Of a stretch of 58,683 bases of DNA, positions 100 to 58,683 are shown one piece after another. The translations under genes and the position numbers were made by a program. Numbering within the stretch: position 1 is the stretch's first letter; every line of letters starts with the position of its first letter. Origin of the DNA: Enterococcus phage AS-M1_NWU; sequence record OR506460.1. One strand, given 5' to 3'. The notes under the pieces are model-generated. The model did no database searches, was not told where the DNA came from, and was given only the letters and a program-made list of their open reading frames with translations.

Positions 100-330
100 T
101 AACACCGCGATCGCCTCGCACAATCGCACACGCTTACAATTTGAGGCACATCTAACCCGCAACCCCGCCCACCAGAACACCCATACGCCGAAACACCACG
201 AAAAGCGGTTATATTTGTAAAAACGTCATACGGAACACCCGCACACCCGAACACCCTCACAAAACGTAAAAACGACGTTCCCGATCGGCGTGTACACCCT
301 AGACGCTATACACCCGCCCAACGGGTACGA
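100..330. repeat. Cluster of ~8 short CACCC/ACACCC iteron-like direct repeats in non-coding DNA
   Basis: repeated aacaccc / cacacccg / tacaccc motifs, strong C/A strand bias, no credible ORF. Confidence 0.5.
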
Positions 331-642
331 CCGACAAACTTAAAACCCCCTTTAAGTCGGAACAAATGTATCAACGAGAACCGCCCTCAATCGAACCACA
401 CGGGCATAACACGTCATAGGTAATACATCGGCCTTACCTAGCGGGTAAAACACGCTGAGAACGCAACACATGGCTTTAAGGTAATTTTCCATAGGGCGCG
501 GGGGGAATGTGGGAGAGTGAGGGCTTGGGGTGGTGGTGTTGGGTGGGTAGGCGCTGGCGCGACCGCATGGATAGAACGACGGACAAGAACGCGAAAAGCC
601 CCGCACGAATGCGAGGCCTTGGGGGTGGGCTTGGTGGGACGG

Positions 643-882
643 CTACCGGATTGTTAGGGCGACTCCTCCGGCGAACACCAAGATAGCGACGCAAACCATG
701 AAGACGATCATCATGATAGCGCCGATTGATTCGAGAACCAACGTTGTGCGGTGTAGACCGTCGAAACCGTTTTTCTGTATGGCGCGGAAAAAGAACGCGA
801 GAATGTAAATCGAAATTAGGCCAAAGAAACACACGGCGCCCACGTTGTACACTCCGGAGAGTAGCATCTTGAGAACACTCAT
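643..882 (-). CDS. small hydrophobic (membrane) protein, ~79 aa
   Basis: ORF-track frame trimmed to ATG at 882, which overlaps the TGA of the upstream gene (ATGA coupling). Two hydrophobic helices. Confidence 0.4.
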   Translation of the reverse strand: MSVLKMLLSGVYNVGAVCFFGLISIYILAFFFRAIQKNGFDGLHRTTLVLESIGAIMMIVFMVCVAILVFAGGVALTIR

Positions 883-3321: not shown

Positions 3322-3374
3322 TTTAAAATCCTCAATACTGGTTTAAGTTTCCGGTTCGTTCCGGCTATGTGAGT

Positions 3375-3403
3375 AATATAATATTACCGCTCTCAGGTGT
3401 CAA
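3375..3403 (-). promoter_or_regulatory. sigma70-like early promoter copy 1 (TTGACA-N17-TATATT on minus strand)
   Basis: revcomp reads ttgacacctgagagcggtaatattatatt; part of a ~110-bp cassette repeated 4x. Confidence 0.6.
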
Positions 3404-3430
3404 CAAGTTTTTATAATTATTTTAGGCAAT

Positions 3431-3464
3431 AAAAAAGGACGGCCACCCGAAAAGATGACCGCCC
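3431..3464 (-). terminator. putative intrinsic terminator (minus strand) upstream of promoter copy 1
   Basis: minus-strand RNA GGGCGG-loop-CCGUCC (G-U wobble) followed by UUUUUU. Confidence 0.3.
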
Positions 3465-3482
3465 CTAGTGTTGATGCTTCGA

Positions 3483-3704
3483 TTATCGTGTGAGCATCGT
3501 AACCACTGAATTTTTAACCATTTCCAATGAATCCCCGCCAAGGCTCACACCTTGCCCGCAGAAAGTCCACGGCTTGAGGTGGTGGGGCGTCTTGGCAATC
3601 GTCCCGATCCACACCCCACCCGCAACAACGTAATAAATATTTTCGCCTCGCTCTTGGTAAATCTCGATCGTCTTATCCATGGTTGGATTATTTACCGGCT
3701 TCAT
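3483..3704 (-). CDS. hypothetical small protein
   Basis: 73-aa ORF overlapping 3' end of upstream gene by 17 nt. Confidence 0.35.
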   Translation of the reverse strand: MKPVNNPTMDKTIEIYQERGENIYYVVAGGVWIGTIAKTPHHLKPWTFCGQGVSLGGDSLEMVKNSVVTMLTR

Positions 3705-4338
3705 TTTCTACCCCTTTAATTTTAACTAGCTCTTGTTTGTACTCGGAGCCGAGCACATAATTTTTATTTTCTTCCTTTGGATAAGGCAATACCGGATATC
3801 GAAGCAACTTTTTATATTTCTTCACGACCGAACGGCTCCCCGTAAAATAAACATATCGATGCTTAGACGTTCTAACTTGTCGATAAGTCTTACTTTCCTT
3901 CCCTTGATAATGCCGAGAGTGTTTACCTTGTTCCGTGTATTTATCGGTGCGCGCTTTCGTTGCCCCCGTGTAGATGAAATTGGACGCTTGATAAATATAC
4001 CCGTTGTGGTTCATACCGCGATCCGCATACGACACAATTACCAAGTTTTCACTTTTCAACTCAGCCATAGCGAACGCGATCAATCGGGACGGCGCGTTAC
4101 GGATCGGACGAGTAAAACAAAGACGGTTTAGCTCAAAAACTTTGCTTTTGTACTCCTCGCCCAATATTCCAACGCATAGCGGATTACTCGCCGGCTTGCC
4201 GATAGTTAGAACACCGACAAGCTCCTCGTCTTCGAAGAAACCGAAAGCGTAAGAGATGCTAGGGCGCCTTTCCGCATAATGGTAGTTTAAGATTATGTCT
4301 AAACAATCTTTAGGATCGATACGCCTCATAGAATACAT
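3688..4338 (-). CDS. putative Mom-like DNA-modification protein (GNAT-fold acyltransferase family); tentative
   Basis: 216 aa; motifs NYHYAERRP, ELNRLC, VSYAD, GYIYQASNF resemble my memory of phage Mu Mom family; needs HMM confirmation. Confidence 0.35.
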   Translation of the reverse strand: MYSMRRIDPKDCLDIILNYHYAERRPSISYAFGFFEDEELVGVLTIGKPASNPLCVGILGEEYKSKVFELNRLCFTRPIRNAPSRLIAFAMAELKSENLVIVSYADRGMNHNGYIYQASNFIYTGATKARTDKYTEQGKHSRHYQGKESKTYRQVRTSKHRYVYFTGSRSVVKKYKKLLRYPVLPYPKEENKNYVLGSEYKQELVKIKGVENEAGK

Positions 4339-4341
4339 ATT

Positions 4342-5082
4342 TTAACCCTCCCACGTCCAAGATTCTGAGGCGTCACGAACAATAATTTCGGCCGGACGGT
4401 TTGCGCGTATTGCAACGTCTTTACCATCAACGAAGTAGACCGCGAAAAAATACCCGAACACGTCGCCATCTTTTACGTGGATTTCTCGTCCGTCGTCTTC
4501 GCAGTAGAACACTGTAAGCCCGTCTACTGATGCTTCGTTGTTCACTTCGAAACCAAGGCTTGACAGGCCGTCTAACAGCGGGCGCATTGTGTCGAAACTT
4601 TCAGGAAGTGACGCCAAGATCAAGGCGTCTAAATCACTAACCGCGTTACGTTTAAGAGTCACACACCCGCCGATCGTGAAAGTTATGTCCCAATCTTCGG
4701 TTGCTTCGCCACGGCTAAAAAATATGGCTTTTAATTCTTCCCCGTCGTTTGTTTTTGTAAACGTTGTCGCTCCGTGAGATTTATCAAGGTCTAAAGAGAA
4801 CCCTAGCGCTTTCATTACGGCGATAGTTCGTGCGGATAAGTCCGCATCATTGGCCATATGACAGCTCGCACCATGATCGAACGCGCTCACCTCGACGCTC
4901 TCAAAAAGATATCTAACTAACGGAAGAAATTTATCTAGGTCAGCAATTAATGCTATCGCCCCCGATAATGTTTTAACATCGCCCACCTTGGCGCGAGGGC
5001 TAACTGTCAAAATATAATTACGAACACTTTCGGGCATATCAAAAGGGCTGTTATTGGTTACAACGTTAGAAATGAAAGTCAT
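4342..5082 (-). CDS. hypothetical early protein (after promoter cassette copy 2)
   Basis: 246-aa ORF, RBS ggagga 7 nt before ATG, conserved leader. Confidence 0.55.
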   Translation of the reverse strand: MTFISNVVTNNSPFDMPESVRNYILTVSPRAKVGDVKTLSGAIALIADLDKFLPLVRYLFESVEVSAFDHGASCHMANDADLSARTIAVMKALGFSLDLDKSHGATTFTKTNDGEELKAIFFSRGEATEDWDITFTIGGCVTLKRNAVSDLDALILASLPESFDTMRPLLDGLSSLGFEVNNEASVDGLTVFYCEDDGREIHVKDGDVFGYFFAVYFVDGKDVAIRANRPAEIIVRDASESWTWEG

Positions 5083-5136
5083 GATTTAAATCCTCCATAC
5101 TGGTTTAAGTTTCCGGCTCGTTCCGGGTATGTGGGT

Positions 5137-5165
5137 AATATAATACTACCGCGCTCAGGTGTCAA
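5137..5165 (-). promoter_or_regulatory. sigma70-like early promoter copy 2
   Basis: revcomp ttgacacctgagcgcggtagtattatatt. Confidence 0.6.
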
Positions 5166-5191
5166 CAAGTTTTTATAAATATTCTAGGCAA

Positions 5192-5230
5192 TAAAAAACC
5201 TCTTACCGTGGCACCGAATAAGAGGTTTTA
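5192..5230. terminator. bidirectional intrinsic terminator hairpin
   Basis: 9-bp perfect stem aacctctta / taagaggtt, 13-nt loop, A-run 5' and T-run 3'. Confidence 0.45.
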
Positions 5231-5426
5231 GTTACTAACTTGTTTTCGTGTTTTCAAATCAAGGCTATATTAACGGATATTTTTCAGCTTGTAAACAATA
5301 AATTTATCCGCTTAAAAGAAAAAAGCCCGCATATACGGGCTTAAAATATAAGGCTTAATGACCTAAAATTACGCAAACTTTACGAAGTGTGGCACAAGTA
5401 ACCCAAATCAACCAACGGAAGCGAAC

Positions 5427-5636
5427 TTATCCACCGTTGAGCTGAACAATAACACCGTTACGGGTACTGTCAAGAGTTGCAGCGCATAGACCAATAGAAC
5501 CGCGCCACGGTGAATATATCCCACAGGATACACACTTTAATCTAAACAAAACTAGCCCGTTACTACTGCGAGCCTCAGATCTAAACGGCTTACCGCATGA
5601 ACAATAATACCAGTTTTTCTTTTCCTTGATCACCAC
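5427..5636 (-). CDS. small Cys-rich (zinc-ribbon-like) protein
   Basis: 69 aa, CSCG...CVSCG motifs. Confidence 0.35.
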   Translation of the reverse strand: MVIKEKKNWYYCSCGKPFRSEARSSNGLVLFRLKCVSCGIYSPWRGSIGLCAATLDSTRNGVIVQLNGG

Positions 5637-6061
5637 ACAGCCCCCCTTACGTTCGTGAGTGTGTCCCTATAACTCCGATATAAATTTTTTGCTCCTCGTA
5701 TCCATTCGCCGGCGATCTCCCCCGAGAAAAGAACCGGCTCGTAAACCGGGTAAGTGACATTAGGGCTATCCGTTCTAACGTCGTCGATCCTAACGTATGC
5801 CCGCCGGTGTCCGTAAGAATATCGGACGGTTAGGACTCTAAGCAACTTGCTGTTAACATGGAACACGACGCCATAAGAGTAATTAAAGTCCGGTAACGAT
5901 AAATCGATGCTAGGCCTCCCGATAGCCACTACCGGGAGATTTAGAAACTCATTACAAGCCTCATAAAATTTGAAACAATTTACTGAGTTACCCATGATAT
6001 ACAACCCCGCGCAGTTCCAGACCTCGGAAATTATAGTAAATCTCAGACTCACCGGCTTCAT
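5630..6061 (-). CDS. hypothetical protein
   Basis: 143-aa ORF overlapping the 3' end of the 5988..6557 gene. Confidence 0.4.
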   Translation of the reverse strand: MKPVSLRFTIISEVWNCAGLYIMGNSVNCFKFYEACNEFLNLPVVAIGRPSIDLSLPDFNYSYGVVFHVNSKLLRVLTVRYSYGHRRAYVRIDDVRTDSPNVTYPVYEPVLFSGEIAGEWIRGAKNLYRSYRDTLTNVRGAVW

Positions 6062-6557
6062 TCGGCGCCCACATGCACACAGAAAAGTCGCCAGCGTCGA
6101 ACTCTCTTAGATGCGATATGTGACCGAAACGGCACCCGCCAGTGATTACCAGCTCGTCGATTGTTCCGAACTCCTCGCAACCCTCGACAACTTCTTCCAG
6201 TGCTTCGGCCAGTTCTTCGATGTAGGCTTCCACTTGTTCACGCCAAGACGCTCTTATTAATGCGTTAGCTTCCATCATCAAACAATTTAATGAACTTTCG
6301 CACCCGCTGAAATCTAAAGGAGATTCTAACTCAACAGAATCAAACTCGCTAGACTGGACGATCTCCCACGCTTCCCCGAAGTGGTCAACGCTGATACACT
6401 CCGGCGCATTCATTAGGTTATTTTCTTCGAAAAGGTCGCGTAATTGATTTTCGAAATCTCCGCGGGTATCTAATGAAGTTCCTTTAGGTAGACCCGTATT
6501 AACATCATCAATGATAGATTGGAAGATAGACGCTTTAGTGTATGCTAATTCAGCCAC
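5988..6557 (-). CDS. highly acidic hypothetical protein (candidate DNA-mimic/anti-restriction); GTG start
   Basis: Listed ORF start (TTG at 6572) lies inside the conserved leader RBS; GTG at 6557 is 8 nt after gagga. Very high D/E content. Confidence 0.45.
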   Translation of the reverse strand: MAELAYTKASIFQSIIDDVNTGLPKGTSLDTRGDFENQLRDLFEENNLMNAPECISVDHFGEAWEIVQSSEFDSVELESPLDFSGCESSLNCLMMEANALIRASWREQVEAYIEELAEALEEVVEGCEEFGTIDELVITGGCRFGHISHLREFDAGDFSVCMWAPNEAGESEIYYNFRGLELRGVVYHG

Positions 6558-6611
6558 GGTAATAATCCTCAATACTGGTTTAATTTTCCGGTTCGTTCCG
6601 GCTATGTGTGT

Positions 6612-6640
6612 AATATAATACTACCGCTCTCAGGTGTCAA
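6612..6640 (-). promoter_or_regulatory. sigma70-like early promoter copy 3
   Basis: revcomp ttgacacctgagagcggtagtattatatt. Confidence 0.6.
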
Positions 6641-6662
6641 CATGTTTTTATAATTATTTTCC

Positions 6663-7064
6663 TCAATCGGGGAAATAGGGGATTCTACATTCACATAAGG
6701 TCAGATTTTCTATGTGGGTAAAAATGACCTCTAAGTGTAACGTCTTCCAGCACTGGCCGGAATTCAGGAAATGCCGGCGGATAATGAGCCAGCCCCGATC
6801 ATCTTCGACTATTCCGGATATGCGAAGGCTTACAATAGTTTTGTTGTCTGAGTAAGCCGGTTTACTCTCCGGATCAGCTCGGAAGTAAAACGCATTAGCT
6901 AGATTTAAAATAGTCTGTATGTCGTGCGTAGATAGTTGTAACTCTTTTTCGTGCGGACTCAAGAACGAAGAAAGCCGGGATCTCGCCCGGCGTGAATTGG
7001 TATCTTTAGGAACTGATGAAAAGTATGTCACACCGTCCACCCCATTAACTGTATAATCGCTCAA
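6663..7064 (-). CDS. hypothetical protein
   Basis: 133-aa ORF. Confidence 0.45.
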   Translation of the reverse strand: MSDYTVNGVDGVTYFSSVPKDTNSRRARSRLSSFLSPHEKELQLSTHDIQTILNLANAFYFRADPESKPAYSDNKTIVSLRISGIVEDDRGWLIIRRHFLNSGQCWKTLHLEVIFTHIENLTLCECRIPYFPD

Positions 7065-7233
7065 AACTTTTCACCTCTCGATGTGTAACGGTTCGGTTAT
7101 AAGAGACGTTACGTGTTAACATAAAGCGCATATCCCACGCTGGACAGAATAGCGAACCGTCCCCATTGACAGTAACTTTTTCGTCGTCAGCGATTAAAAT
7201 CATACCGCTGTTTAGAGTAATTTTATTCTTCAT
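7045..7233 (-). CDS. hypothetical small protein
   Basis: Track ORF trimmed to ATG at 7233 (overlaps upstream stop by 11 nt). Confidence 0.3.
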   Translation of the reverse strand: MKNKITLNSGMILIADDEKVTVNGDGSLFCPAWDMRFMLTRNVSYNRTVTHREVKSFERLYS

Positions 7234-7465
7234 CGTTATCTCTCCCACGTATCGCAGATATAAACGCTTCCCCGCTCTCCTGATCAGGCCACGCAATCCC
7301 GCCAACCACGCCGAACGCTATCCCATAAAGACAGAAACGCGCGACGGTTAGATCACCATATACGGCCAAAGTTCCCACCGCCCCCGCGAACCCTACCGCA
7401 CAAAGAGACGCGACGACAAAACCGAACGCCCCGCGAGCCTCTAAATTATTTAATTTCTTAGCCAT
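7223..7465 (-). CDS. small membrane protein (2 TM)
   Basis: 80 aa, Gly/Ala-rich hydrophobic helices. Confidence 0.4.
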   Translation of the reverse strand: MAKKLNNLEARGAFGFVVASLCAVGFAGAVGTLAVYGDLTVARFCLYGIAFGVVGGIAWPDQESGEAFISAIRGRDNDEE

Positions 7466-7476
7466 AGATAAACTCC

Positions 7477-7803
7477 TTACGGGTGAATAATAATATTATC
7501 GTTGCGTGTTCGAACCGGCTCCGATAAATACATATTCGCCACCTTACCGCTTTTTATATCCTTTTTAATCTCGGATATCATCAAGCCCGACCGAATAATT
7601 ACAGAAGACGGGCTACTCACTCTTTCTTCTGATATCGCAACAGGGAAAGGGAAATCATTCAATAGGTTATCGATGAACTTTTCCAGATAATCCGCGTCGG
7701 CTTTATGGGAGAGGACGACATATTGCTCATAGTTCGCCTCAATCCCTGTGACAGTCAGACGATGCGCAGAACGGAAAAGATCGAAAGGAATTTGTTTGCT
7801 CAT
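7477..7803 (-). CDS. hypothetical early protein (first gene after promoter copy 4)
   Basis: ATG at 7803 preceded by RBS tgagg; promoter 7836..7864 upstream. Confidence 0.5.
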   Translation of the reverse strand: MSKQIPFDLFRSAHRLTVTGIEANYEQYVVLSHKADADYLEKFIDNLLNDFPFPVAISEERVSSPSSVIIRSGLMISEIKKDIKSGKVANMYLSEPVRTRNDNIIIHP

Positions 7804-7835
7804 TACTAAAACCTCAGTTTGTTTGTGTGCTGAGA

Positions 7836-7864
7836 ATATTAACAACACCTCGGGCCGGTGTCAA
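7836..7864 (-). promoter_or_regulatory. sigma70-like leftward early promoter copy 4
   Basis: revcomp ttgacaccggcccgaggtgttgttaatat. Confidence 0.55.
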
Positions 7865-7974
7865 CAAGTTTTTTTATCTATAAAAATTCTGACGGAACAA
7901 AGGAAACGCGCCCACCGGTGCGCCCGTACATACATATAAGACGGACAGTTTGTACTTATCTACAAAAATCTCAG

Positions 7975-8144
7975 GCTTACTTCAAAAACCTCGCGGGCCG
8001 ATGATTTTCTGTGACGATTTAAAAACTTTTCCGGCCGGCTTACTTCAAAAACCTCGCGGGCTGAAAAAATTCCCGTGAGGAATAAAAACTGGCCAATGGA
8101 TTTATCTACAAAAATTAGAACCTAACTTCAAAAACCTCGCCGGC
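7975..8144. repeat. three ~25-bp direct repeats (ggcttacttcaaaaacctcgcgggc) interleaved with ttatctacaaaaat repeats
   Basis: copies at 7975..7998, 8037..8061, 8121..8144; ttatcta[ct]aaaaat at 7883, 7955, 8102; between divergent promoters. Confidence 0.7.
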
Positions 8145-8204
8145 TGACGGAAATCCTCGGGTAACATCGATTAAAACTTTACGGTTAAAAATACATAAAA
8201 ACGT

Positions 8205-8233
8205 TTGACACCGCAAACAGGTTAGATTAGTAT
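8205..8233 (+). promoter_or_regulatory. rightward early promoter TTGACA-N17-TAGTAT
   Basis: ttgacaccgcaaacaggttagattagtat, 40 nt upstream of ORF 8275. Confidence 0.5.
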
Positions 8234-8274
8234 TCTCGGACATTAAAGATGATTAGCCACAACAAGGGGAAAAC

Positions 8275-11929: not shown

Positions 11930-12693
11930 ATGATGGGGATTTAGACATTATGGCACTACCACCAATTAAAGACTTTGCCGGATATGACGGCCCACTAGAC
12001 CACCCGATCATCATGCCAGTACCGTCCCTCATGCGGGCGGAAGTCTATGTATCCCACGATTTAAAGGACATAGAAATTAATGGCGTTTTCCGAGACGGAA
12101 CCTATTCGGCGTCAAGATGGACTGGTTCATGCCCCGAATTGGAAGAACAATTTTTATTCCTAGCGGAGTTGTTGAAAGACGACTTCAAGGAAAAATGTAT
12201 CCTCCCATTTAGAGTGGGTCGAGACAAGTCCGAACTACGAGAAGTCGATAGATTTATCCCGGGGATCACCGGCAACATCGGTTTTGAAGTGTATTTACAT
12301 GACACCGGGGATTTCGGCACTAAGTATACTCAGAAATGCTTAGCCAACTGTAAGATGACGGGAGAGAAAGACGACGACGGTCTAGTATCCGCCTCGATCG
12401 TGAGCGCTTACGGGTTCGGGGAACTAACGCCTGTTTCTCGCGAGGTGACAGACGTTGTGAGAATTTACGAAAGACGTTACCAGATCAGCCACCGACTCAA
12501 CCTCATGGACGACGAGGGGTATTTGCTGTCATTAGCTCCCGGAGAACTGAAACGCGTTGACGCGGTACGAACCGCTGAGTTCTATTTCGAGCAAGGATAT
12601 CCCAACGTGATTATTCTCAATTCCGGTCGTCCGTACAACTCCGACGCTACCGGACAAATGTATTACTATTCACCGGAGACATACGACTTATGA
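11926..12693 (+). CDS. hypothetical protein
   Basis: 255-aa ORF. Confidence 0.5.
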   Translation: MNDGDLDIMALPPIKDFAGYDGPLDHPIIMPVPSLMRAEVYVSHDLKDIEINGVFRDGTYSASRWTGSCPELEEQFLFLAELLKDDFKEKCILPFRVGRDKSELREVDRFIPGITGNIGFEVYLHDTGDFGTKYTQKCLANCKMTGEKDDDGLVSASIVSAYGFGELTPVSREVTDVVRIYERRYQISHRLNLMDDEGYLLSLAPGELKRVDAVRTAEFYFEQGYPNVIILNSGRPYNSDATGQMYYYSPETYDL

Positions 12694-17244: not shown

Positions 17245-17416
17245 CTTGTTTTACCTCATTAACTCGTTCTTGTTCAATATGGTTATCGATAATATCTTCG
17301 ACAACTTTCTCGTTCTTTCCGTCCTGTTTTCCTTTACGCCACGTTAGGAATAGGAGGACAAAAAAGGCGACGACCCCTAGAGCCATCGCCTTGATTTTAG
17401 CCCAAAAGGACATCAC
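17159..17416 (-). CDS. i-spanin-like protein
   Basis: 85 aa; N-terminal TM then charged periplasmic domain; contains o-spanin start. Confidence 0.45.
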   Translation of the reverse strand: MMSFWAKIKAMALGVVAFFVLLFLTWRKGKQDGKNEKVVEDIIDNHIEQERVNEVKQDVDSGINSLPDGGSSDRLRSGWLRKDRK

Positions 17417-45527: not shown

Positions 45528-47603
45528 CTATCCTAATAGTTCACCTAAACGGCTAAAGTCTAACATCGGTCGAGGTTGAAAGGCGAATGGTTTTTCTTCC
45601 TCGGGTTCCCTGACCATTGTATTATTGTCCCATTCCTCCGCCCATGTTGGGGGATTGTCCCAATTTATCGACTCTACTCGTAATAACTCCGGAGACGTAC
45701 AAAGGCCCAAGCAGTAGTAGCTTAAGTCCCATGCTTCGTTTCGGGCTTGCGCTAAATTCTCCCAACCTTTCGCGGTTCTCGTTTCGGCGCATAGCTCTGA
45801 GAAAAATTCGTCCGGTAATTCCCTTGTCATATTATAATAGCCCTTGTGAGGCTCAATACAATCTAGTCGACCGTTTAATGCGTCTTTCAACAAGTTCGAG
45901 TTTAAGAATAATACCGGGATTTCCCCTCTAGCTGCATTCTTATCGTTTTTCCGGTTAGAGTCCGGGTAGCTAATGCGGGTTCTCGGGTCTGTTACTCGTG
46001 TACCACCTTTTAATAAGATGAAGCGAGCATGTTTATTCTTTGTCTTCAAATATCGATAGAACGCGTATGCCATGCCGGTTACGCCCGATTTACCCCCTGA
46101 GTCACAACCGGTCATCTTAATTGACATCATTCTACCGCTACCGTCTGAAAGCGGATACTCTTTATCTATTACCTGTTTTTCGATAAGTCTCCAGTCTTCT
46201 TCGTACGTCGCCGGCTGTAAGATCATTGCGTCGCCGTCTTCGTCCTTACGCTCCGACTTATTGATGAAGAATCGGTCGATAACATGTGTGTCATACGGTG
46301 AACCCGGAGAAATACCGAACACCTGTACTACGAAGCTATTCAATTGAACGTCTATCGTTGCTACGAGGAAACGAACGTCGTTCGGAACCATGCCTAGCGG
46401 GTAATCTGATGACCGGCTTTTCAGTGCTTCCGGTGCGCGGACTGACTCTAACGACTTAGGCTGATACGGCTCGCCCATGTTGTTATTCCAGAATTTCTTC
46501 AAGGCTTCTTCTGAGTAAGTCCGTTGATATTCGTCAAGAGCATCGAGGTAGATGTTTACCAGTTTTTGCCATGTCGTAAAGGCGGCAGCCGTACCACGGA
46601 GCCAATAGGAAATGAAGTCGGTATGAGGGGCTTTACCCGTAAGTCTCCCGCTCTTATCAACTTTACAACCCTCCGGAACCCACACGCCGAATAAATTCAT
46701 TTCAAAGCGTTCGTCGGGGTGGATCAAACAACCACATTCCGGGCATACCATTTGTACGGTTTCTGCTTTCTCTCGGTTTGATAGCTGTTTTCCGTTATCC
46801 CACGTTAAATGCTCGAATTTCCCCTCGAAATATTCGTCACAGTGAGGACACGGCCATTGCCAACGTCGTCTATCGCCACGGTTGTAAAGCGCAATAATAC
46901 CGGTACACGGCGGAGCCTCATGCGGTGACTTAGCTATCCAGTGCGGGTCAAGAATCTCTCTCGACGGGGACGATTCGGCCATAGTCATAGCAAATGAACC
47001 AAAGGTCGTTGTACGCTGTGTTGCCAAGTCAAAAGGATTACCATCACCGCCGATATCGTCGTCCATACGGTCAAAGTCGGTCATCAAAATTCTTGGAACC
47101 GGTCGTCCGGCCAATTCGGTTACGGTCGGGTATGTAATAGTTAACATCATACCGGTAATGTATTGTTTATCGAATTTGTTATCGGTATCTCGACCTTTCA
47201 GTAATTGCTCACCGATTAACGGGCTGTGTCGGTGAAGACGATCAATACGTCGCATAGAAAAGTCTCGGGCGGCTGCCATTGTCGGACAGAATACCATTGT
47301 ATCCATCGGTGAGACTTTGATTGAGTATGACACGCCATTAATGATAATCGCGTCGGTTTTACCTGACTGTGCTGGGCCTACAAACGCCATCTTGCTGTGA
47401 TTGCGAGAAGTTAATACGTCCATTGGTTCGACCATATACGGCGTTGTTGTATTCAACCACGGGCCTACATACGACCCGGGAGAATTCACATATCGATATT
47501 GTGATGCTGCATTAGAAACGGTCAACCTTTCCGGAGGTCGTAAGTTATCTGACATCTTGACCGCGATCTCAAAGAGATTTTTGTATTTAGCCATTCTTGC
47601 CAC
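45528..47603 (-). CDS. terminase large subunit (lambda gpA family)
   Basis: 691 aa; Walker A GPAQSGKTD, GpA-like length and architecture. Confidence 0.85.
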   Translation of the reverse strand: MARMAKYKNLFEIAVKMSDNLRPPERLTVSNAASQYRYVNSPGSYVGPWLNTTTPYMVEPMDVLTSRNHSKMAFVGPAQSGKTDAIIINGVSYSIKVSPMDTMVFCPTMAAARDFSMRRIDRLHRHSPLIGEQLLKGRDTDNKFDKQYITGMMLTITYPTVTELAGRPVPRILMTDFDRMDDDIGGDGNPFDLATQRTTTFGSFAMTMAESSPSREILDPHWIAKSPHEAPPCTGIIALYNRGDRRRWQWPCPHCDEYFEGKFEHLTWDNGKQLSNREKAETVQMVCPECGCLIHPDERFEMNLFGVWVPEGCKVDKSGRLTGKAPHTDFISYWLRGTAAAFTTWQKLVNIYLDALDEYQRTYSEEALKKFWNNNMGEPYQPKSLESVRAPEALKSRSSDYPLGMVPNDVRFLVATIDVQLNSFVVQVFGISPGSPYDTHVIDRFFINKSERKDEDGDAMILQPATYEEDWRLIEKQVIDKEYPLSDGSGRMMSIKMTGCDSGGKSGVTGMAYAFYRYLKTKNKHARFILLKGGTRVTDPRTRISYPDSNRKNDKNAARGEIPVLFLNSNLLKDALNGRLDCIEPHKGYYNMTRELPDEFFSELCAETRTAKGWENLAQARNEAWDLSYYCLGLCTSPELLRVESINWDNPPTWAEEWDNNTMVREPEEEKPFAFQPRPMLDFSRLGELLG

Positions 47604-48171
47604 CTACGGTACTCTCTTTGACTTCCGTCTTAGCCCGGTCTCCGAATGCGTCAACGAGTGTTTGCGCCATCTCATTTAGCGCGCCGTCTATCATTTCCGT
47701 GATGCGGGTTCTTTGATGGTCGGTGAGAGTAGTTTCACGTTCCAGTGAGTCTGTTACTAAGAGTAATGACATGCGTAAGTGTTTAAAAGACTCCGACATT
47801 AGCGCTTCTACTTGGTCGGTAGGCCATAGCTCACCCTCTCTCAACTCGTAGTCCTGCTTAGCTTTCATTCCGTTCCAGAACTCTTTAGAGAGCATTTTAG
47901 GAAGCTCGTTGGGGTGCATTCGCTTAATGTAGGTTTCGACATCATACAGGGGCTTTACTAGGTATGGCGCCACTTCATTTAATTTGTAAATCGGATACCC
48001 GCCTCGTTCCCCGCAAGGAGGAACTTCTCGGATCTTGGGCGTAACGTCTCTACGCTCCATGTTAAATATCTTTGCGATCTGAGTGATGTTAACCCCGTCG
48101 AAGATCATCGACTCGGATTCACGGTCTAGCTGATTGCTACGACGTCTTGTTGTTACCGGTGCCTTTGCCAT
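47587..48171 (-). CDS. putative terminase small subunit / DNA-binding protein
   Basis: 194 aa immediately upstream of TerL with overlap; HTH-like N-terminus. Confidence 0.4.
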   Translation of the reverse strand: MAKAPVTTRRRSNQLDRESESMIFDGVNITQIAKIFNMERRDVTPKIREVPPCGERGGYPIYKLNEVAPYLVKPLYDVETYIKRMHPNELPKMLSKEFWNGMKAKQDYELREGELWPTDQVEALMSESFKHLRMSLLLVTDSLERETTLTDHQRTRITEMIDGALNEMAQTLVDAFGDRAKTEVKESTVGGKNG

Positions 48172-55184: not shown

Positions 55185-57859
55185 TGTCTAACGTTTTCAA
55201 ATCTCGTGGCCCTGAACTTTTCGACAATGGATACGAAGTCGTACCTATTACTCGTATCGACGCAACTGACAGCAAAGGGAAATTATTGTCTGGCGCGGGT
55301 AAAGCCCCGGCGTTAAAAGGGTGGCAGAAAATAGAGATCACTTCTGACATCGTTAATGAATGGGCGACGGGTAGTCGCTCTCGCTGTGGTGTGGGTATTC
55401 GTACCCACCGTAACCCTGCTGTCGATATCGACTGTTTAGACGCCGAAGCGTCCGAACACATGACGGCTTTCGTTGAGTCGGAAGTGGGCTTTGCTCCTAT
55501 CCGTGTTGGGCGTGAACCTAAAGCGCTACTTCTCTATTATACAGAACGTCCTTTCACAAAAGTAAAATCAACCATCTTCGTTGATGAAAACGGGAATGAA
55601 AACGCTGTCGAGATATTAGGAAGCGGGCAACAATTCGTTGCTTACGGTATCCACCCGGGAACTAAGAAACCGTATAAATGGGTTACTAAAGGCGAGTCGC
55701 CTGCGGAAAACCAAGCGGATTTTGACCTAGAAGAAATAACACTAGAAGACGCGAGAAAAATTATTGCGGAATTCGACCGGTATGCGAAAGAGCGCGGTTG
55801 GAAACCTTTAAAAAGTAAAAGCGGTACGGTCATCAAGCCATCTATGGGTTACTACTTAGATGCTCCGGAAGAACTATCAGACTGGTCGGACGAGCCAGAC
55901 TTTGACGATGATGAAGACGATTGGGTCACTACTGATGATATCACCGATAAATGGGACGGGACTTACGAAGAACTTTACGAGATCTTCGAAAACGATATCG
56001 AGCCATCTTACGATTATCATACTTGGATTCCTGTTCTGGCTGCACTTAAAGACGCCGAACGTGAGCCGGACGAGTTTAAAGAGATCGCGAGAATGTGGTC
56101 TGCTCGGGCCGAGGGGTCTTTCGATAATGATGCCTTTGAAGATAAATGGGAAAACGGTAATTTCAATCGTGTTGGTAAATACGCTAAGACATTACGAGGA
56201 GTAATTGCCGAAGCGGAAAAGATCCAAGGCGTTCGCGAAATTGAAGACGTAGTTATACCTTTATTCGAAAAAGCTACGGACTTGGCCGAGTGGACTTTAG
56301 CTGCCGACCGCCTACGTGAAACGTGGGCTTTCGGTTTAGAAAGAGAGACGGCCATAAACATTGCTTGCGAAAAGTATAAGAAAGTCACTAACGGGTTAAA
56401 ACTTACGGACGTTCAAAAGAAACGATATCTTAGTATCGATTACTCTCTTTTTGATGCGCCGGAGTGGTTAGCACCTTGGGTTTATTGTACTACGGATAAC
56501 GAGTTTATTAACTTAGACAATAGAACCAGAATGAACCCTAAATCTTTCGCGAATGCCTATAACCGAGAAACTGTGAAGAAATTCGGGGTAGCTGCGGACG
56601 TTTTCGCCACGGTTGAACGGCCGGTTCCGGTTATCCACGATACGATGTATTACCCGTTGATGCACGGTGAGATGCCTAAGAACAAATGGAAGCGAGTTCC
56701 GGGTATTAATGACAAGCGTGTTTTCGAATACAACGGTTTGACGTTCTTAAATACCTTTGACCATCGTTCCATGCCTGAGACAGCTACTAAAATTTCGACC
56801 GCCGGATACAAGGCGATCGGGGAGGTAAAACGATACTTCGAAATACAGTATCCAGACCCGGACGAACGAAGACATGCGATGGACTGGATCGCGTGGGTTA
56901 TCAATAACCCTGTTAGAAAGATTAACTATATGCTTCTCGTTCTTGGTGGTCAGGGTTCCGGTAAAACCATCGTTAAGAAATTTATGGAACACATGCTCGG
57001 TTCTGATAACGTTTCTACGATTTCGAATAAGGTTATCCATGGTAATTTTACCGGGTGGCAGTCTGGCCACATGCTAAAAGTTATTGAGGAAATATCGGTG
57101 AGTGGTCATCGCTACGACGTTATGAACTCATTGAAAGAGCCGATATCGAATGAAACGTTACAGATCGAAGCGAAGTACCGTGACCCGCGCCAGTGTGTGA
57201 ATACTTCGTCGTATATGGCATTTACCAATGATGTTGGTGCTTTGCCTCTTACATCAAGTGACCGTCGCTTCTTGTTAGTTCGTAGTGCGTTCCAGCATAA
57301 GCGTGAAGTCACGGAATACCTACGGAAAGACCCTAATTACTTTAAACGGTTTGAGAAAGCCTTTACTAAACACGCACCGGAGATCCGCAAATGGTTTAGC
57401 GAGTGGGAGTATTCCGAGGGCTTCAAACACGATGGTAACGCTCCTGAAACGGTGAGTATGGGAAGCATGTCTTTAGCGTCAGAAGACGATTTCACCTCCG
57501 TAGTAATGGGGGCCGTAGATGATTGTGAGAAAGAGTTAGAATTTACATCGGGGATCACAGACGAAGTAATTTTCATTCCATCGGCAGTAGATTTAGTCCG
57601 AGATAGGTCTAAGGTTCCTAACGGGAAAATAATATATCGCATACTCGCTGAATATGGTTTCTTCCGGCCTGTGGATTCTCGTACACAAATAAGATTTAAT
57701 GACGTAAGAGGACAAGTTGTTGTCGCGAATAGACATAAATGGCTCTATCCTGATGGGAGTGTCAACGTAGATAAGATTAAAGAGCATTTAGAGGAGAACG
57801 AACGCCGGGTAGAAGAACAAGAAAGCAAGAGAGAGTTAGAGGAAACTGACGTTTTCTAA
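55184..57859 (+). CDS. primase-polymerase (prim-pol N-terminal domain) fused to D5/P4-type helicase
   Basis: 891 aa; N-terminal bifunctional prim-pol-like region; Walker A LVLGGQGSGKT and Walker B-like region. Confidence 0.7.
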   Translation: MSNVFKSRGPELFDNGYEVVPITRIDATDSKGKLLSGAGKAPALKGWQKIEITSDIVNEWATGSRSRCGVGIRTHRNPAVDIDCLDAEASEHMTAFVESEVGFAPIRVGREPKALLLYYTERPFTKVKSTIFVDENGNENAVEILGSGQQFVAYGIHPGTKKPYKWVTKGESPAENQADFDLEEITLEDARKIIAEFDRYAKERGWKPLKSKSGTVIKPSMGYYLDAPEELSDWSDEPDFDDDEDDWVTTDDITDKWDGTYEELYEIFENDIEPSYDYHTWIPVLAALKDAEREPDEFKEIARMWSARAEGSFDNDAFEDKWENGNFNRVGKYAKTLRGVIAEAEKIQGVREIEDVVIPLFEKATDLAEWTLAADRLRETWAFGLERETAINIACEKYKKVTNGLKLTDVQKKRYLSIDYSLFDAPEWLAPWVYCTTDNEFINLDNRTRMNPKSFANAYNRETVKKFGVAADVFATVERPVPVIHDTMYYPLMHGEMPKNKWKRVPGINDKRVFEYNGLTFLNTFDHRSMPETATKISTAGYKAIGEVKRYFEIQYPDPDERRHAMDWIAWVINNPVRKINYMLLVLGGQGSGKTIVKKFMEHMLGSDNVSTISNKVIHGNFTGWQSGHMLKVIEEISVSGHRYDVMNSLKEPISNETLQIEAKYRDPRQCVNTSSYMAFTNDVGALPLTSSDRRFLLVRSAFQHKREVTEYLRKDPNYFKRFEKAFTKHAPEIRKWFSEWEYSEGFKHDGNAPETVSMGSMSLASEDDFTSVVMGAVDDCEKELEFTSGITDEVIFIPSAVDLVRDRSKVPNGKIIYRILAEYGFFRPVDSRTQIRFNDVRGQVVVANRHKWLYPDGSVNVDKIKEHLEENERRVEEQESKRELEETDVF

Positions 57860-57883
57860 AATATCGCGATTTTCGGTTTAAAG

Positions 57884-57910
57884 AGGTCACATTACGTGGC
57901 CTTTTTTTAT
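57884..57910 (+). terminator. intrinsic terminator after primase gene
   Basis: GGUCAC-auuac-GUGGCC (one G-U) followed by UUUUUUUAUU. Confidence 0.5.
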
Positions 57911-57959
57911 TGCCCGAAAAACGACGCTCCCGATCGGGAATGCACGTTTGGTCAAAAAA

Positions 57960-58110
57960 TGAGCGTACAAAATTTATACAGAAAAACGTTCAATATTTAA
58001 CCGATTTTCGGGTGTTCGGATTTTTTGAGTGAATTTCCAAATTTTCATTTTTCCATTTTTTGGTCGAAAAATGCCGAAAATGCTGTACAAATTTTATACA
58101 GGGTTTTTTG
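57960..58110. repeat. repeated imperfect palindromes tgtacaaa(a)tttatacag (x2) plus related half-sites
   Basis: 57965..57983 and 58087..58104; third partial at ~58190. Confidence 0.5.
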
Positions 58111-58626
58111 ACACAAAGTGTGTCGGACATGTGTTCCGACGTGTGCGTGCCAGTTAACGTGTTGATTTCCTTAGAAACGCATTTTTTATACTGTACAAAA
58201 ATCACCCAACACACATGATCGAATTACCTTTATATAGCTTATATATATATTTTTCTATTTTTCCTTTCCTATCTATTTTTTCTTTCTTCTGGAATTTCTA
58301 TTTTATTACCTATTACTGTGTTTGCTGTGTCAGAAAGAAAGTAATATAGTAAAAACAATAGCTTACCTTGGAACACTTATTGGAACATCAACTGGCACAG
58401 CAATTTCCTGTGACACACCGCCAACCATGGTAATACCTAAAACCGCGTATAACTGTTTGATATCGATAGGGAATCTCCTAAAATGCCGGGCATTAGGGTA
58501 AACCCTCGCTCCTATTCCACTAGCTACGCTAGACCGGAAGTAAGTTAATTAAATCAATGGTTTACGACGAGGGGCTATGGCAGATCCCGGACAAATTTCA
58601 GGAAGACGGCTCTGCGCCCCGCCCAA

Positions 58627-58677
58627 CCGGACAACTCGTCCAAGTACCTTTTTCGATTTAAAAGTGATTCTTCTCTG
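58627..58677. repeat. Right copy of 51-bp direct repeat
   Basis: identical to 1..51. Confidence 0.9.
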
Positions 58678-58683
58678 TAGCGC

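Follow-up and report, generated by a model that had tools for sequence, protein, structure and literature searches.

The gene-free gap between the primase stop codon (position 57859) and the leftmost leftward gene (643-882, minus strand) of phage AS-M1_NWU appears to be the cos region of a Chi-like siphophage, with two converging terminators as its borders; we assign this reading a probability of roughly 80%. Positions refer to the window, i.e., the whole stretch of 58,683 nucleotides that was analysed, and signed offsets are counted from the nick. Judged by its sequence, AS-M1_NWU is a Chi-like Proteus phage (family Casjensviridae, genus Lavrentievavirus); Lavrentievavirus genomes are 92-99% identical to the whole window. 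A preliminary description of this DNA noted about 1.4 kb without credible genes across the junction of the window ends, which is borne out with a corrected length of 1,409 bp, given that 58627-58683 duplicates 1-57. All the features listed there are present, each a genome-wide outlier; the 21-bp direct repeat, three IHF-consensus sites, the 57-bp terminal redundancy and the cos sequence itself had been missed. Among the roles proposed there, that of a packaging site is supported, that of a switch region is rejected, and a replication origin is neither supported nor excluded.

The gap is 89-99% conserved over its whole length in 27 records, and the segment 57860-58360 is conserved to the same degree as coding DNA. 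A conserved core around the nick, from about -110 to +115, is shared by Lavrentievavirus, Kokobelvirus, Chivirus and metagenomic lineages. Synteny is kept as well, with the primase on one side, the end of the early operon on the other, and the terminase genes distant.

The cohesive ends

58609-58620, no strand assigned: cosN, the 12-nt cohesive-end sequence, here GCTCTGCGCCCC, placed by experimental ends in relatives, record ends and an adapter

Chi and Chi-like phages carry a 12-nt 5' overhang, GGTGCGCAGAGC (Hendrix et al. 2015, PMC4342425; Leavitt et al. 2017, PMC5374247; Cobbley et al. 2022, PMC9022528), and the canonical cosN form, GCTCTGCGCACC, is the reverse complement of 5'-GGTGCGCAGAGC. 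The sequence at 58609-58620 matches this reverse complement in 11 of 12 positions; an alternative alignment, against E21, RP6, P2-71, Jing313 and Kokobel1, gives 9 contiguous matches followed by a 3-nt gap. Published mapping of the ends is available for Chi (primer extension), Utah (run-off sequencing), SeF2 (PhageTerm) and Jing313, a member of the same genus (PhageTerm; "the same ends in all six"). The Jing313 record begins with GGTGCGCAGAGC and ends with ...GGGCGGGGGTGCGCAGAGC; joined, its ends are identical base for base to E21, RP6 and P2-71 across the site, and it is 95% identical to AS-M1_NWU across the left arm. In relatives, more than 20 records have the last base of the 12-mer as their starting point and several have its first base, so that the packaging site suspected in the preliminary description is bracketed by record ends. 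Some of the relatives' records carry an annotated "cos end 5' overhang" feature, and the metagenomic contig L034 ends with the 12-mer followed by an Illumina adapter. A 14-mer scan of IMG/VR returned mostly chance matches, with only a handful of Chi-like ones once filtered. These comparisons support the placement of the ends of AS-M1_NWU, too, at 58609-58620, i.e., the sequence record would have been opened 6 bp to the right of the cos site.

AS-M1_NWU, ASh-2020a, SD-12 and pPM_01 are missing 3 nt (CAC/ACC) inside the canonical joint, and alignment lengths suggest that PM87, SD-11 and SD-14 may be without the same 3 nt. In a scan of IMG/VR for the 3-nt-short joint, 0 contigs were found. Because of this gap inside the joint, the exact overhang of AS-M1_NWU is uncertain (GCTCTGCGCCCC, or a loss in assembly): it may be either GGTGCGCAGAGC or GGGGCGCAGAGC, depending on whether the indel is real.

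The flanks of the nick and a packaging model

58571-58580 (-38 to -29), no strand assigned: conserved box GGGGCTATGG, from cross-lineage comparison
58552-58564 (-57), plus strand: IHF-consensus site 1, AATCAATGGTTTA
58521-58533, no strand assigned: 13-bp perfect palindrome CTAGCTACGCTAG (N4-CTACG-N4'), from arm covariation
58450-58462 (-159), minus strand: IHF-consensus site 2, TATCAAACAGTTA
58155-58167 (-454), minus strand: IHF-consensus site 3, AATCAACACGTTA; Kokobel1 has one at -441
16-47, no strand assigned: right-flank boxes AAGTACCTTTTT (16-27) and GTGATTCTTC (38-47), from cross-lineage conservation
108-115, no strand assigned: conserved CGATCGCC block, with CGATCG in this phage, E21, Kokobel1 and Chi

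On the primase side, the sequence looks like a lambda cosB. The GGGGCTAT core of the box at 58571-58580 is present in every sampled lineage except for the JX094499 copy of Chi (GGGGATAT), and the trailing GG is variable (Kokobel1 GGGGCTATAC, L020 GGGGCTATGA); Chivirus-type genomes have a second GGGGCTA after IHF site 2. Three of the six IHF-consensus matches in the genome are located in the left arm. Site 1 is matched at -57 to -60 in this phage, E21, Kokobel1, Chi, L017, L020 and L034, in an orientation that varies among lineages, and site 2 at -155 to -159 in this phage, E21, Kokobel1, Chi, L016, L017 and L019. Both are thus position-conserved in most of the eight sampled lineages, site 1 being degenerate in L016 and L019 and site 2 in L020 and L034. 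In 8 further sequences, the only matches within 1.5 kb are those at -57 to -60 and/or -155 to -159, plus the one at -441/-454 in Kokobel1 and E21. The TTGAT motifs, considered as -35 boxes, were rejected as such since they are the cores of the IHF-consensus sites. Binding of IHF and TerS at these consensus-level sites is putative.

The arms of the 13-bp palindrome co-vary: across 8 sequences, 95% of the cells are paired, both sides change in 4 of the 5 pairs, and 0 of 500 shuffles reach the score. This palindrome, which is lineage-specific, is a candidate site for a dimeric protein, putatively the terminase small subunit, and the co-varying arms could equally form a hairpin. On the other side of the nick, the boxes at 16-47 are, by analogy, cosQ-like candidates; in the lineages with right-flank sequence, AAGTACCTTTT (GAGTACCTTTT in Kokobel1) lies 34-38 nt from the first base of the 12-mer.

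The packaging genes of this phage lie far from the nick:
45528-47603: TerL, with matches to GpA_ATPase (8e-67) and GpA_nuclease (5e-55)
47587-48171: TerS, a DUF1441 protein

The portal protein belongs to the lambda family (Phage_portal_2, 6e-84). The preliminary description took the gpA-type terminase to predict a cos site but was puzzled by the lack of non-coding space beside the TerS gene; this is explained by a published trait of Chi, the displacement of its terminase genes by more than 10 kb from cos.

Lambda cos is organised as cosQ-cosN-cosB, with an IHF site between the gpNu1-binding R sites, where IHF bends the DNA between the terminase-binding sites. As in lambda, the overhang is 5' and 12 nt long, the large terminase is of the gpA type and the portal is of the lambda family; IHF-consensus sites and a candidate small-subunit site are confined to one side of the nick, and short conserved boxes lie on the other. 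The putative IHF sites are flanked by a co-varying palindrome and a conserved box. However, the two regions are not similar in sequence, the terminase genes are not located beside cos, TerS belongs to DUF1441 rather than being Nu1, and two to three putative IHF sites are spread over about 450 bp, compared to about 120 bp for lambda cosB. Chi-like cos regions have the same overhang sequence, save the 3-nt difference that leaves this phage with GCTCTGCGCCCC, the same flanking boxes, and the same general plan: cos, a non-coding arm, then the primase, with the early genes extending to the other end and the terminase genes at a distance of more than 10 kb.

After injection, the overhangs would anneal and the DNA would circularise and form concatemers. 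The terminase (TerS and TerL) would then assemble on the primase side of the nick, at the GGGGCTATGG box, the putative IHF sites about 100 bp apart and the 13-bp palindrome, and TerL would nick the two strands 12 nt apart. By analogy with lambda, packaging would proceed toward decreasing window coordinates, primase side first, and would end at the next cos, where the right-flank boxes might act like cosQ. The end with the sigma-70-driven early genes (1 to about 8,000) would accordingly be the last in and the first out; in a Tn-seq study of Casjensviridae, injection was inferred to begin with the early-gene end.

The distal left arm, the right-flank arrays and a possible origin

57917-57937, plus strand: 21-bp repeat copy A, AAAAACGACGCTCCCGATCGG, containing the palindrome CCCGATCGGG
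57965-57981 (-644), no strand assigned: palindrome P1, GTACAAAATTTATACAG, operator-like
58085-58101, no strand assigned: palindrome P2, GTACAAATTTTATACAG; Kokobel1 counterpart CTGTACGTTTTTTGTAC
58191-58199, plus strand: palindrome half-site CTGTACAAA
58225-58320, no strand assigned: AT-rich tract, polypyrimidine on the plus strand, genome AT maximum
58368-58387, plus strand: direct repeat TTGGAACA-N4-TTGGAACA
175-315, plus strand: ACACCC array at 177, 235, 243, 251, 294 and 310, of which 235/243/251 are three tandem octamers
268-288, plus strand: 21-bp repeat copy B
470-560, plus strand: G-rich tract, C-rich and G-poor in the leftward transcript

The distal palindromes, AT tract, 21-bp repeats and ACACCC array are conserved and look functional; origin, operator or Rho-site roles are possible for the palindromes, the tract and the arrays. 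The two or three palindromes of about 18 bp reported earlier resolve into two exact copies of GTACAAAWTTTATACAG (57965-57981 and 58085-58101, compared to 0.41 expected in the whole window) and one half-site; Kokobel1 has CTGTACAAAAAT at the P1 position. P2, considered as a LexA box (CTGT-N11-ACAG), was rejected for its wrong spacing. The short direct repeats are found in tandem (CGAAAAATGC/CGAAAATGC) at 58064-58082, 5' of P2. Within the pyrimidine-rich tract placed at 58200-58340 in the preliminary description, positions 58229-58308 are the most AT-rich 80-nt window of the genome (66/80) and 58238-58317 the most C-over-G skewed one; the AT maximum lies at -372 to -409 in all 6 lineages compared, and the tract is the least variable part of the gap (pi = 0.0075). 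Kokobel1 keeps the repeat at 58368-58387 in part (TTGGAACA..TTTGACAC). The 21-bp direct repeat AAAAACGACGYTCCCGATCGG occurs twice (57917-57937 and 268-288), with 0.01 copies expected in the window; the copies were rejected as minus-strand terminators, since they fold no better than shuffles.

In the right flank, the CACCC cluster first seen at 100-330 proved to be the ACACCC array; with an inverted copy at 58010-58017, the gap contains 7 copies compared to 0.6 expected (about 12-fold enrichment), and RMACACCC occurs at 175, 233, 241 and 249. C-rich arrays are present at +68 to +168 in 6 of 6 lineages, and L016 has similar TAACACCCGCCC motifs. The G-run tract of opposite skew, previously assigned to 480-640, corresponds to 470-560: positions 472-551, with 41 G and 6 C, are the most G-skewed 80-nt window of the genome, and 5 of 6 lineages have a G-rich maximum between +370 and +597. 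The sequence CCACCAGA (169-176) was rejected as a RecBCD Chi site because it agrees with that site at 7 of 8 positions and relatives do not share it.

A replication origin in addition to cos is the most viable of the alternatives, albeit clearly less probable than its absence: the adjacent Prim-Pol/SF3-helicase would bind short repeats and melt the AT tract, the candidate repeats being the ACACCC octamers (tandem at 233-256, inverted at 58010-58017) and/or P1/P2. Initiator genes lie beside iteron origins in the rep-ori of SaPIs and in P4, whose alpha protein acts with octamer iterons in ori/crr. Like these, the present locus combines octamer repeats (GAACACCC) and an AT-rich tract with an adjoining gene for a primase-SF3-type helicase fusion, which contains Prim-Pol, PriCT_2 and DUF5906 (P-loop) domains and matches PDB chains 6k9c/6k9e, deposited as "Primase", in its helicase part. 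The ACACCC enrichment, the position of the AT maximum, kept in six lineages, IHF site 3 adjoining the tract and the coding-like conservation of 57860-58360 all favour an origin. The locus differs from P4 and the SaPIs, however, in its Prim-Pol primase domain and in that cos separates the repeats from the AT tract, by about 480 bp; moreover, a repeat period of 8 bp is atypical for iterons, and the left arm itself offers only 2-3 palindromes, 108-120 bp apart, and no iteron array. DnaA boxes are not enriched (43 vs 44.7 expected), with one in the gap, and a literature search on Chi-like phages found no experimental origin. The GC-skew inflection anticipated for this region is not there: cumulative GC/AT skew turns at 54.9 kb (54,864) and at about 8-10 kb, with gene orientation, and because skew follows gene orientation, it is uninformative as an origin locator.

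Transcription into the gap

57880-57910, plus strand: intrinsic terminator of the primase unit, with an 11-bp stem, AUUAC loop and U7
588-620, minus strand: intrinsic terminator of the leftward early unit, with an 11-bp stem, UUCG loop and U-rich tail (-16.4 kcal/mol)

The first terminator directly follows the primase stop and is predicted to fold at -15.4 kcal/mol (z = -5.95), which 0 of 200 shuffles equal; Kokobel1, Chi and L016 have a terminator in the position of the second. Because both intrinsic terminators face the gap, a divergent switch region for the rightward and leftward units, as had been proposed, is rejected: both units are transcribed into the gap, and outward promoters for them were not found. 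Consensus scans for promoter-like sites in the gap gave 1 vs 2.8 expected and 0 vs 0.7 expected. Near-consensus promoters are found instead at 3375-7864 and 8205, with a divergent promoter zone near 7830-8250, and early sigma-70 promoters are directed toward cos. In the cos reading, convergent transcripts would be kept off cos by both terminators, with the C-rich transcript tracts as possible further contributors.

It is conceivable, although rather improbable, that the strand-opposed C-rich tracts are Rho-utilisation sites backing up both terminators, in which case plus-strand RNA of about 70-330 and minus-strand RNA of 470-560 would be engaged and converging transcripts stopped before cos. 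Over its 80 nt, the transcript of 472-551 has 41 C and 6 G, a bias stronger than anywhere else in the genome, and 120-199 ranks third on the other strand; each tract is downstream of its incoming transcription unit, and the bias rather than the sequence is kept across lineages. However, the ACACCC array consists of specific repeated words, some common to several lineages, which argues for recognition of a specific sequence and not of composition alone; in addition, the C-rich stretch of Chi precedes its terminator instead of following it, and no plus-strand promoter evidently feeds the right-arm tract.

It seems unlikely that P1, P2 and the half-site are operators for a dimeric HTH regulator of left-arm transcription. 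P1 and P2 are indeed dyads of 15-19 bp with an A/T centre that are found only here, and the 200-600 interval of Chi, upstream of gp1, contains repeated GGTTACAAG/CTTTGTAACC dyads, a plan shared by L016. The part of Chi that corresponds to the left arm also encodes gp1, an HTH protein of the XRE type whose gene has a promoter of its own, and contains many GTTACAA half-sites. Upstream of the primase, AS-M1_NWU encodes a 94-aa protein, with a PHROG match of unknown function, where ASh-2020a and Chi annotate a "transcriptional regulator". In contrast to Chi, however, the Lavrentievavirus left arm is without a gp1 HTH gene: the 74-aa ORF in its place is not HTH-like, is frameshifted in SD-12 and, considered as a gp1 relative, was rejected as unrelated. 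The dyads also differ (TGTACAAA-type, with ACACCC octamers, in Lavrentievavirus; GTTACAA dyads with four GATATACGCGGCGTGCGT repeats in Chi), promoter-like sites are at or below chance, and, since both flanking units are directed into the gap, P1/P2 have no gene downstream that they could regulate.

A lambda-sized cos (about 200 bp) leaves about 900 bp of conserved distal sequence unaccounted for, which is a point against a model with cos alone. The Chi-like cos might be a nucleoprotein assembly of 0.5-1 kb, or it might be interleaved with a replication origin; we give these two readings a low probability. In the former case, the DNA would wrap the small-terminase ring with bends about 100 bp apart, at IHF sites (-57/-159), the TTGGAACA repeats (about -240), the AT tract (about -340) and the IHF site at -454; in the latter, the ACACCC octamers would be initiator sites of the adjacent Prim-Pol/SF3-helicase, and packaging and initiation would be under one shared control region.

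Coding content and the terminal redundancy

Pfam and PHROG scans of the ORFs 57990-58214, 58215-58349, 352-606 and 476-832 gave no matches, and translation of these four internal ORFs in seven relatives showed each to be interrupted, by a frameshift or a stop, in one or more relatives of 95-99% identity. Coding potential in the gap is therefore rejected, and the earlier suspicion that three of these ORFs (352-606, 476-832 and 57990-58214) are composition artefacts is supported. The flanking gene at 643-882 has only a sub-threshold Pfam match, and annotations across cos include as many as a dozen spurious ORFs (in SD-12). No Rfam family was found at gathering score in the whole window, or at E <= 1 in the contiguous ASh-2020a junction, and no tRNAs were found in the window.

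58627-58683, plus strand: redundant copy of 1-57, an assembly overlap rather than a biological terminal repeat

The two copies are 96% identical (2 mismatches), the last bases of 58627-58683 are those of the ASh-2020a haplotype, and the records of PM87 and the SD phages begin at the same point; nevertheless, a mis-joined or otherwise artefactual junction, or a T7-like direct terminal repeat of 57 bp, is highly improbable given the single copy and collinear sequence in 7 relatives sequenced through the site, the 12-nt cohesive ends mapped in the genus 6 bp to the left of position 1, and the conservation of the entire gap; the T7-like repeat is rejected on the first two counts.

Implications

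Because the DNA ends are already mapped in near-identical relatives, the gap is real and functional but largely ordinary, and the biological value of this assignment is modest, the cos of Chi-like phages being known. Its immediate use is in annotation: genomes of the genus are deposited with arbitrary starts, whereas cosN at 58609-58620 gives the correct orientation and ends and is the reason why assemblies "circularise" with a short overlap. A literature search did not find the combination of an IHF pair and a co-varying palindrome described beside a Chi-type cosN; this position-conserved IHF-consensus pair and palindrome may serve as a model for the recognition, by a gpA-type terminase, of a cos that is separated from the terminase genes by more than 10 kb. 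Should the distal arrays turn out to be an origin, the region would provide a compact handle for engineering Chi-like therapeutic phages.

The cohesive-end site

The non-coding DNA between the primase gene and the last leftward early gene is a Chi-type cohesive-end (cos) region. Of the roles suggested in the preliminary description, the packaging site proves to be the right one: the sequence across the site reads GGAAGACG|GCTCTGCGCCCC|GCCCAACC, with a Chi-type 12-mer at 58609-58620, and the mapped ends of related phages and the ends of database records coincide there. Phage Chi possesses 12-nt 5' single-stranded ends, 5'-GGTGCGCAGAGC, as determined by primer extension; the ends of Utah, obtained by run-off sequencing, are identical, and PhageTerm assigns Chi-type ends to SeF2 and to Jing313, a Proteus phage of the same genus whose authors report the same for all six of their genomes. 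The Jing313 record starts with GGTGCGCAGAGCCGTCTTCC and ends with ...CCGGTTGGGCGGGGGTGCGCAGAGC, and its joined ends, reverse-complemented, are identical to E21, RP6 and P2-71 at every base across the site. In a survey of record ends with a 176-nt probe spanning cos, more than 20 records, including Chi, Utah, YSD1, Siskin, Season12 and Smarc6, start at the last base of the 12-mer, several with annotated “cos overhang” features, and its first base is the start or end of the Saba, SVV09-A, Jing313 and DanisaurMW records. In the metagenomic contig L034 (IMGVR_UViG_2974711357_000001, 12433-12469), the Illumina adapter AGATCGGAAGAGC adjoins the terminal 12-mer, and this junction marks a physical DNA end; the untrimmed adapter persists in the public contig.

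The large terminase subunit, TerL, is of the gpA type and the portal of the lambda type. The expectation of a cos site drawn earlier from this terminase is borne out, but the site is not beside the TerS gene, where no non-coding space exists; it lies more than 10 kb away. This puzzle is resolved because the same displacement of the terminase genes from cos, by more than 10 kb, is reported for Chi.

45528-47603: TerL
47587-48171: TerS

The joint itself varies by 3 nt at 58617/58618, inside the canonical 12-mer. The window, ASh-2020a, SD-12 and pPM_01 lack the 3 nt (CAC/ACC), as probably do PM87, SD-11 and SD-14, judged by alignment length, and E21, RP6, P2-71, P-07, Q29, Jing313 and Kokobel1 have them. 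The shortfall may be a real allele (overhang GGGGCGCAGAGC) or a recurrent assembly loss; in the aligned relatives it is independent of the flanking substitution patterns, because pPM_01 and Jing313 differ at the indel despite the same flanking haplotype. The deposited DanisaurMW record reads GTGGCGCAGAGC, as against the GGTGCGCAGAGC stated in its own paper.

Extent, relatives and coding potential

BLAST matches both halves of the gap to 27-30 phage records at 89-99% identity, nearly all Proteus phages of the genus Lavrentievavirus, Casjensviridae (PM87, pPM_01, ASh-2020a, E21, RP6, P2-71 and the vB_PmiS series), with Providencia phage Kokobel1 and a Klebsiella Chivirus among the lower-scoring matches. 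Several records carry other host names and are 92-99% identical to Lavrentievavirus across the region (PV593182, Staphylococcus phage SVV09-A; PV596763, Pseudomonas phage E21; OR699184-87, Salmonella phages SD-11 to SD-14), and Staphylococcus phage SA1 (GU169904, 147 kb) contains a 64-bp Chi-type cos-flank match of 81.5% identity at 17341-17404; wrong host labels or contamination are likely in these records.

Positions 58627-58683 repeat 1-57 with two mismatches, and relatives sequenced through the junction possess a single copy, so that the window represents a 58,626-bp unit whose circular assembly was opened here, and the DNA is continuous across the junction. The 3' copy ends in CTGTAGCGC, the ASh-2020a haplotype, and the 5' copy reads CTGGAACGC, the SD-12 haplotype; the difference points to a mixed population or to poor sequence quality at the ends of the contig. 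The arbitrary start point is common to the window and the PM87, SD-11, SD-13 and SD-14 records.

The previously noted gap of about 1.4 kb without credible genes spans 1,409 bp from the primase stop (57859) to the last leftward gene (643-882, minus strand). Pfam and PHROG gave no matches for its internal ORFs, and each of these carries a frameshift or a stop in one or more relatives of 95-99% identity; as suspected, they are composition artefacts. tRNA and Rfam searches found nothing. The flanking gene is intact, with conservative changes; its conserved, mostly hydrophobic 79-aa product has no significant family match (Claudin_3 is sub-threshold, E = 0.009). Ten CDSs labelled “hypothetical protein”, each 30-60 codons long, in OR699185 (SD-12_S18, 1580-2824 of the examined stretch), placed over the terminator, cos and repeat arrays, are over-annotated non-coding DNA.

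Transcription around the gap

A strong hairpin with a U7 run behind it closes the primase unit (57880-57910; -15.4 kcal/mol, z = -5.95), and a UUCG-loop hairpin with a U-rich tail closes the leftward unit (620-595; -16.4 kcal/mol). Four near-consensus minus-strand sigma-70 promoters (3403, 5165, 6640 and 7864) lie within a repeated 114-nt unit, each copy of which contains a minus-strand TTGACA-17-TATATT, often directly past a terminator; early transcription of the leftward operon, directed at cos, probably starts from them.

3323-3436, 5085-5198, 6560-6673, 7831-7881: 114-nt intergenic unit, three to four copies
8205-8233: rightward promoter, TTGACA-17-TAGTAT

Beside the rightward promoter, within the true divergent control region, a 51-nt repeat (...CTTACTTCAAAAACCTCGCGGGC...) occurs three times at 7951-8147. 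The gap is instead a zone of convergence, where inward units end in terminators and promoter-like sites are at or below chance, which disposes of its proposed role as a switch region.

Architecture of the two arms

All the gap elements listed in the preliminary description are present, and each is unusual; the IHF-consensus sites, the terminal redundancy, the cos sequence and a 21-bp direct repeat had been missed. Perfect matches to the palindrome GTACAAAWTTTATACAG lie at 57965-57981 (P1) and 58085-58101 (P2), against 0.41 matches expected in the whole window. The AT maximum of the genome (80-nt windows) is at 58229-58308 and its G-skew maximum at 472-551 (41 G, 6 C); 120-199 ranks third for C skew, and ACACCC is found in 7 copies (0.6 expected).

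57917-57937 and 268-288: 21-bp direct repeat
58064-58082: tandem CGAAAAATGC/CGAAAATGC
58191-58199: palindrome half-site
16-27: conserved box AAGTACCTTTTT, cosQ-like candidate
38-47: conserved box GTGATTCTTC, cosQ-like candidate
108-115: conserved box CGATCGCC
175-315: ACACCC array, with three tandem octamers at 233-256
340-357: small conserved hairpin

Conservation extends to P1 and P2, to the 21-bp and TTGGAACA repeats, to the ACACCC array and to the AT/polypyrimidine and G tracts. Within-genus diversity of 57860-58360 is 0.8-3.4%, compared with 1.4% in the primase 3' half, and is highest in the spacer at 58361-58540 (8.6%).

The left (primase-side) arm was compared between the window and eight sequences: E21, of the same genus, Kokobel1, Chi and five metagenomic Chi-like contigs (L016, L017, L019, L020, L034). 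The conserved box GGGGCTATGG (58571-58580) adjoins the nick; GGGGCTAT is kept in every lineage sampled, bar one Chi record (GGGGATAT), and the final GG of the box is variable in Kokobel1 and L020. The IHF consensus WATCAANNNNTTR has six matches in the whole window, half of them on the primase side, where they are centred on no other places than -57, -159 and -454 (counted from the 12-mer's first base). Matches recur at -57 to -60 in E21, Kokobel1, Chi, L017, L020 and L034, at -155 to -159 in E21, Kokobel1, Chi, L016, L017 and L019, and at -454/-441 in E21 and Kokobel1; within 1.5 kb around cos, the eight sequences have no IHF-consensus matches outside these positions. Because position is constant between lineages and orientation is not, the pattern argues for selection on the predicted IHF sites rather than mere inheritance.

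The two proximal sites flank a perfect 13-bp palindrome, N4-CTACG-N4' (58521-58533), whose arms differ between lineages (CTAG, CTCC, TTAA, TGCC, TCCC, TTAC) and retain complementarity (95% of cells paired; both sides change in 4 of 5 pairs; 0 of 500 shuffles match the score). The covariation fits a site for a dimeric DNA-binding protein co-evolving with it, most obviously, as a candidate, the small subunit of terminase; alternatively, the arms may form a hairpin. The resulting order (nick, box, IHF-consensus site, dyad, IHF-consensus site) resembles in outline the layout of lambda cosB, the terminase-binding side of cos, with no sequence similarity.

In the right arm, the boxes are followed by the ACACCC array, the second 21-bp repeat, the hairpin and the G-rich tract. 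The AT maximum (-372 to -409) and the C-rich array (+68 to +168) keep their positions across lineages, as does the G-rich tract (+370 to +597) in five of six, although sequences and GC content have diverged. In Chi, four GATATACGCGGCGTGCGT copies about 60 bp apart take the place of the ACACCC array (right end, L013 2640-2850), and many GGTTACAAG/CTTTGTAACC dyads lie upstream of the gp1 HTH gene (left end, L006 200-600); these are lineage-specific replacements at conserved positions.

Possible additional roles

Three further roles are compatible with cos. The adjacent primase could plausibly serve a replication origin in the gap, given the Prim-Pol, PriCT_2 and DUF5906 domains of that protein and the match of its helicase part to PDB 6k9c/6k9e; however, neither DnaA boxes nor GC skew support an origin here, and cos separates the repeats from the AT tract. 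Chi offers a hint that P1 and P2 may be operators, since an XRE-type HTH gene and GTTACAA dyads occupy the corresponding interval there, but the window has neither such a gene nor a promoter. Rho-utilisation sites would fit the C-rich transcripts of the two tracts of opposed skew, but the repeated words point to specific recognition. An extended IHF-phased packaging complex of unusual size, or a control region shared by cos and an origin, appears unlikely.

Packaging and significance

The analysis shows what the cohesive-end sequence is and where it lies, which type of terminase is encoded, that the terminators converge, and how the region is conserved. A scheme for the Chi-type cos region can further be proposed in which the left arm would be the assembly site of terminase and IHF, nicks would be made 12 nt apart in the two strands, and packaging would proceed toward decreasing coordinates, so that the early-gene end would enter last and exit first. 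This polarity is consistent with the early sigma-70 promoters on the right-arm side and with a Tn-seq study of another Casjensviridae phage, whose authors concluded that injection starts with the early-gene end.

In its core the finding is not new, because Chi-type ends have been published for Lavrentievavirus itself. The cosB-like sub-architecture, of which no description was found in the literature searched, is a modest new description inside a known Chi-type cos region.
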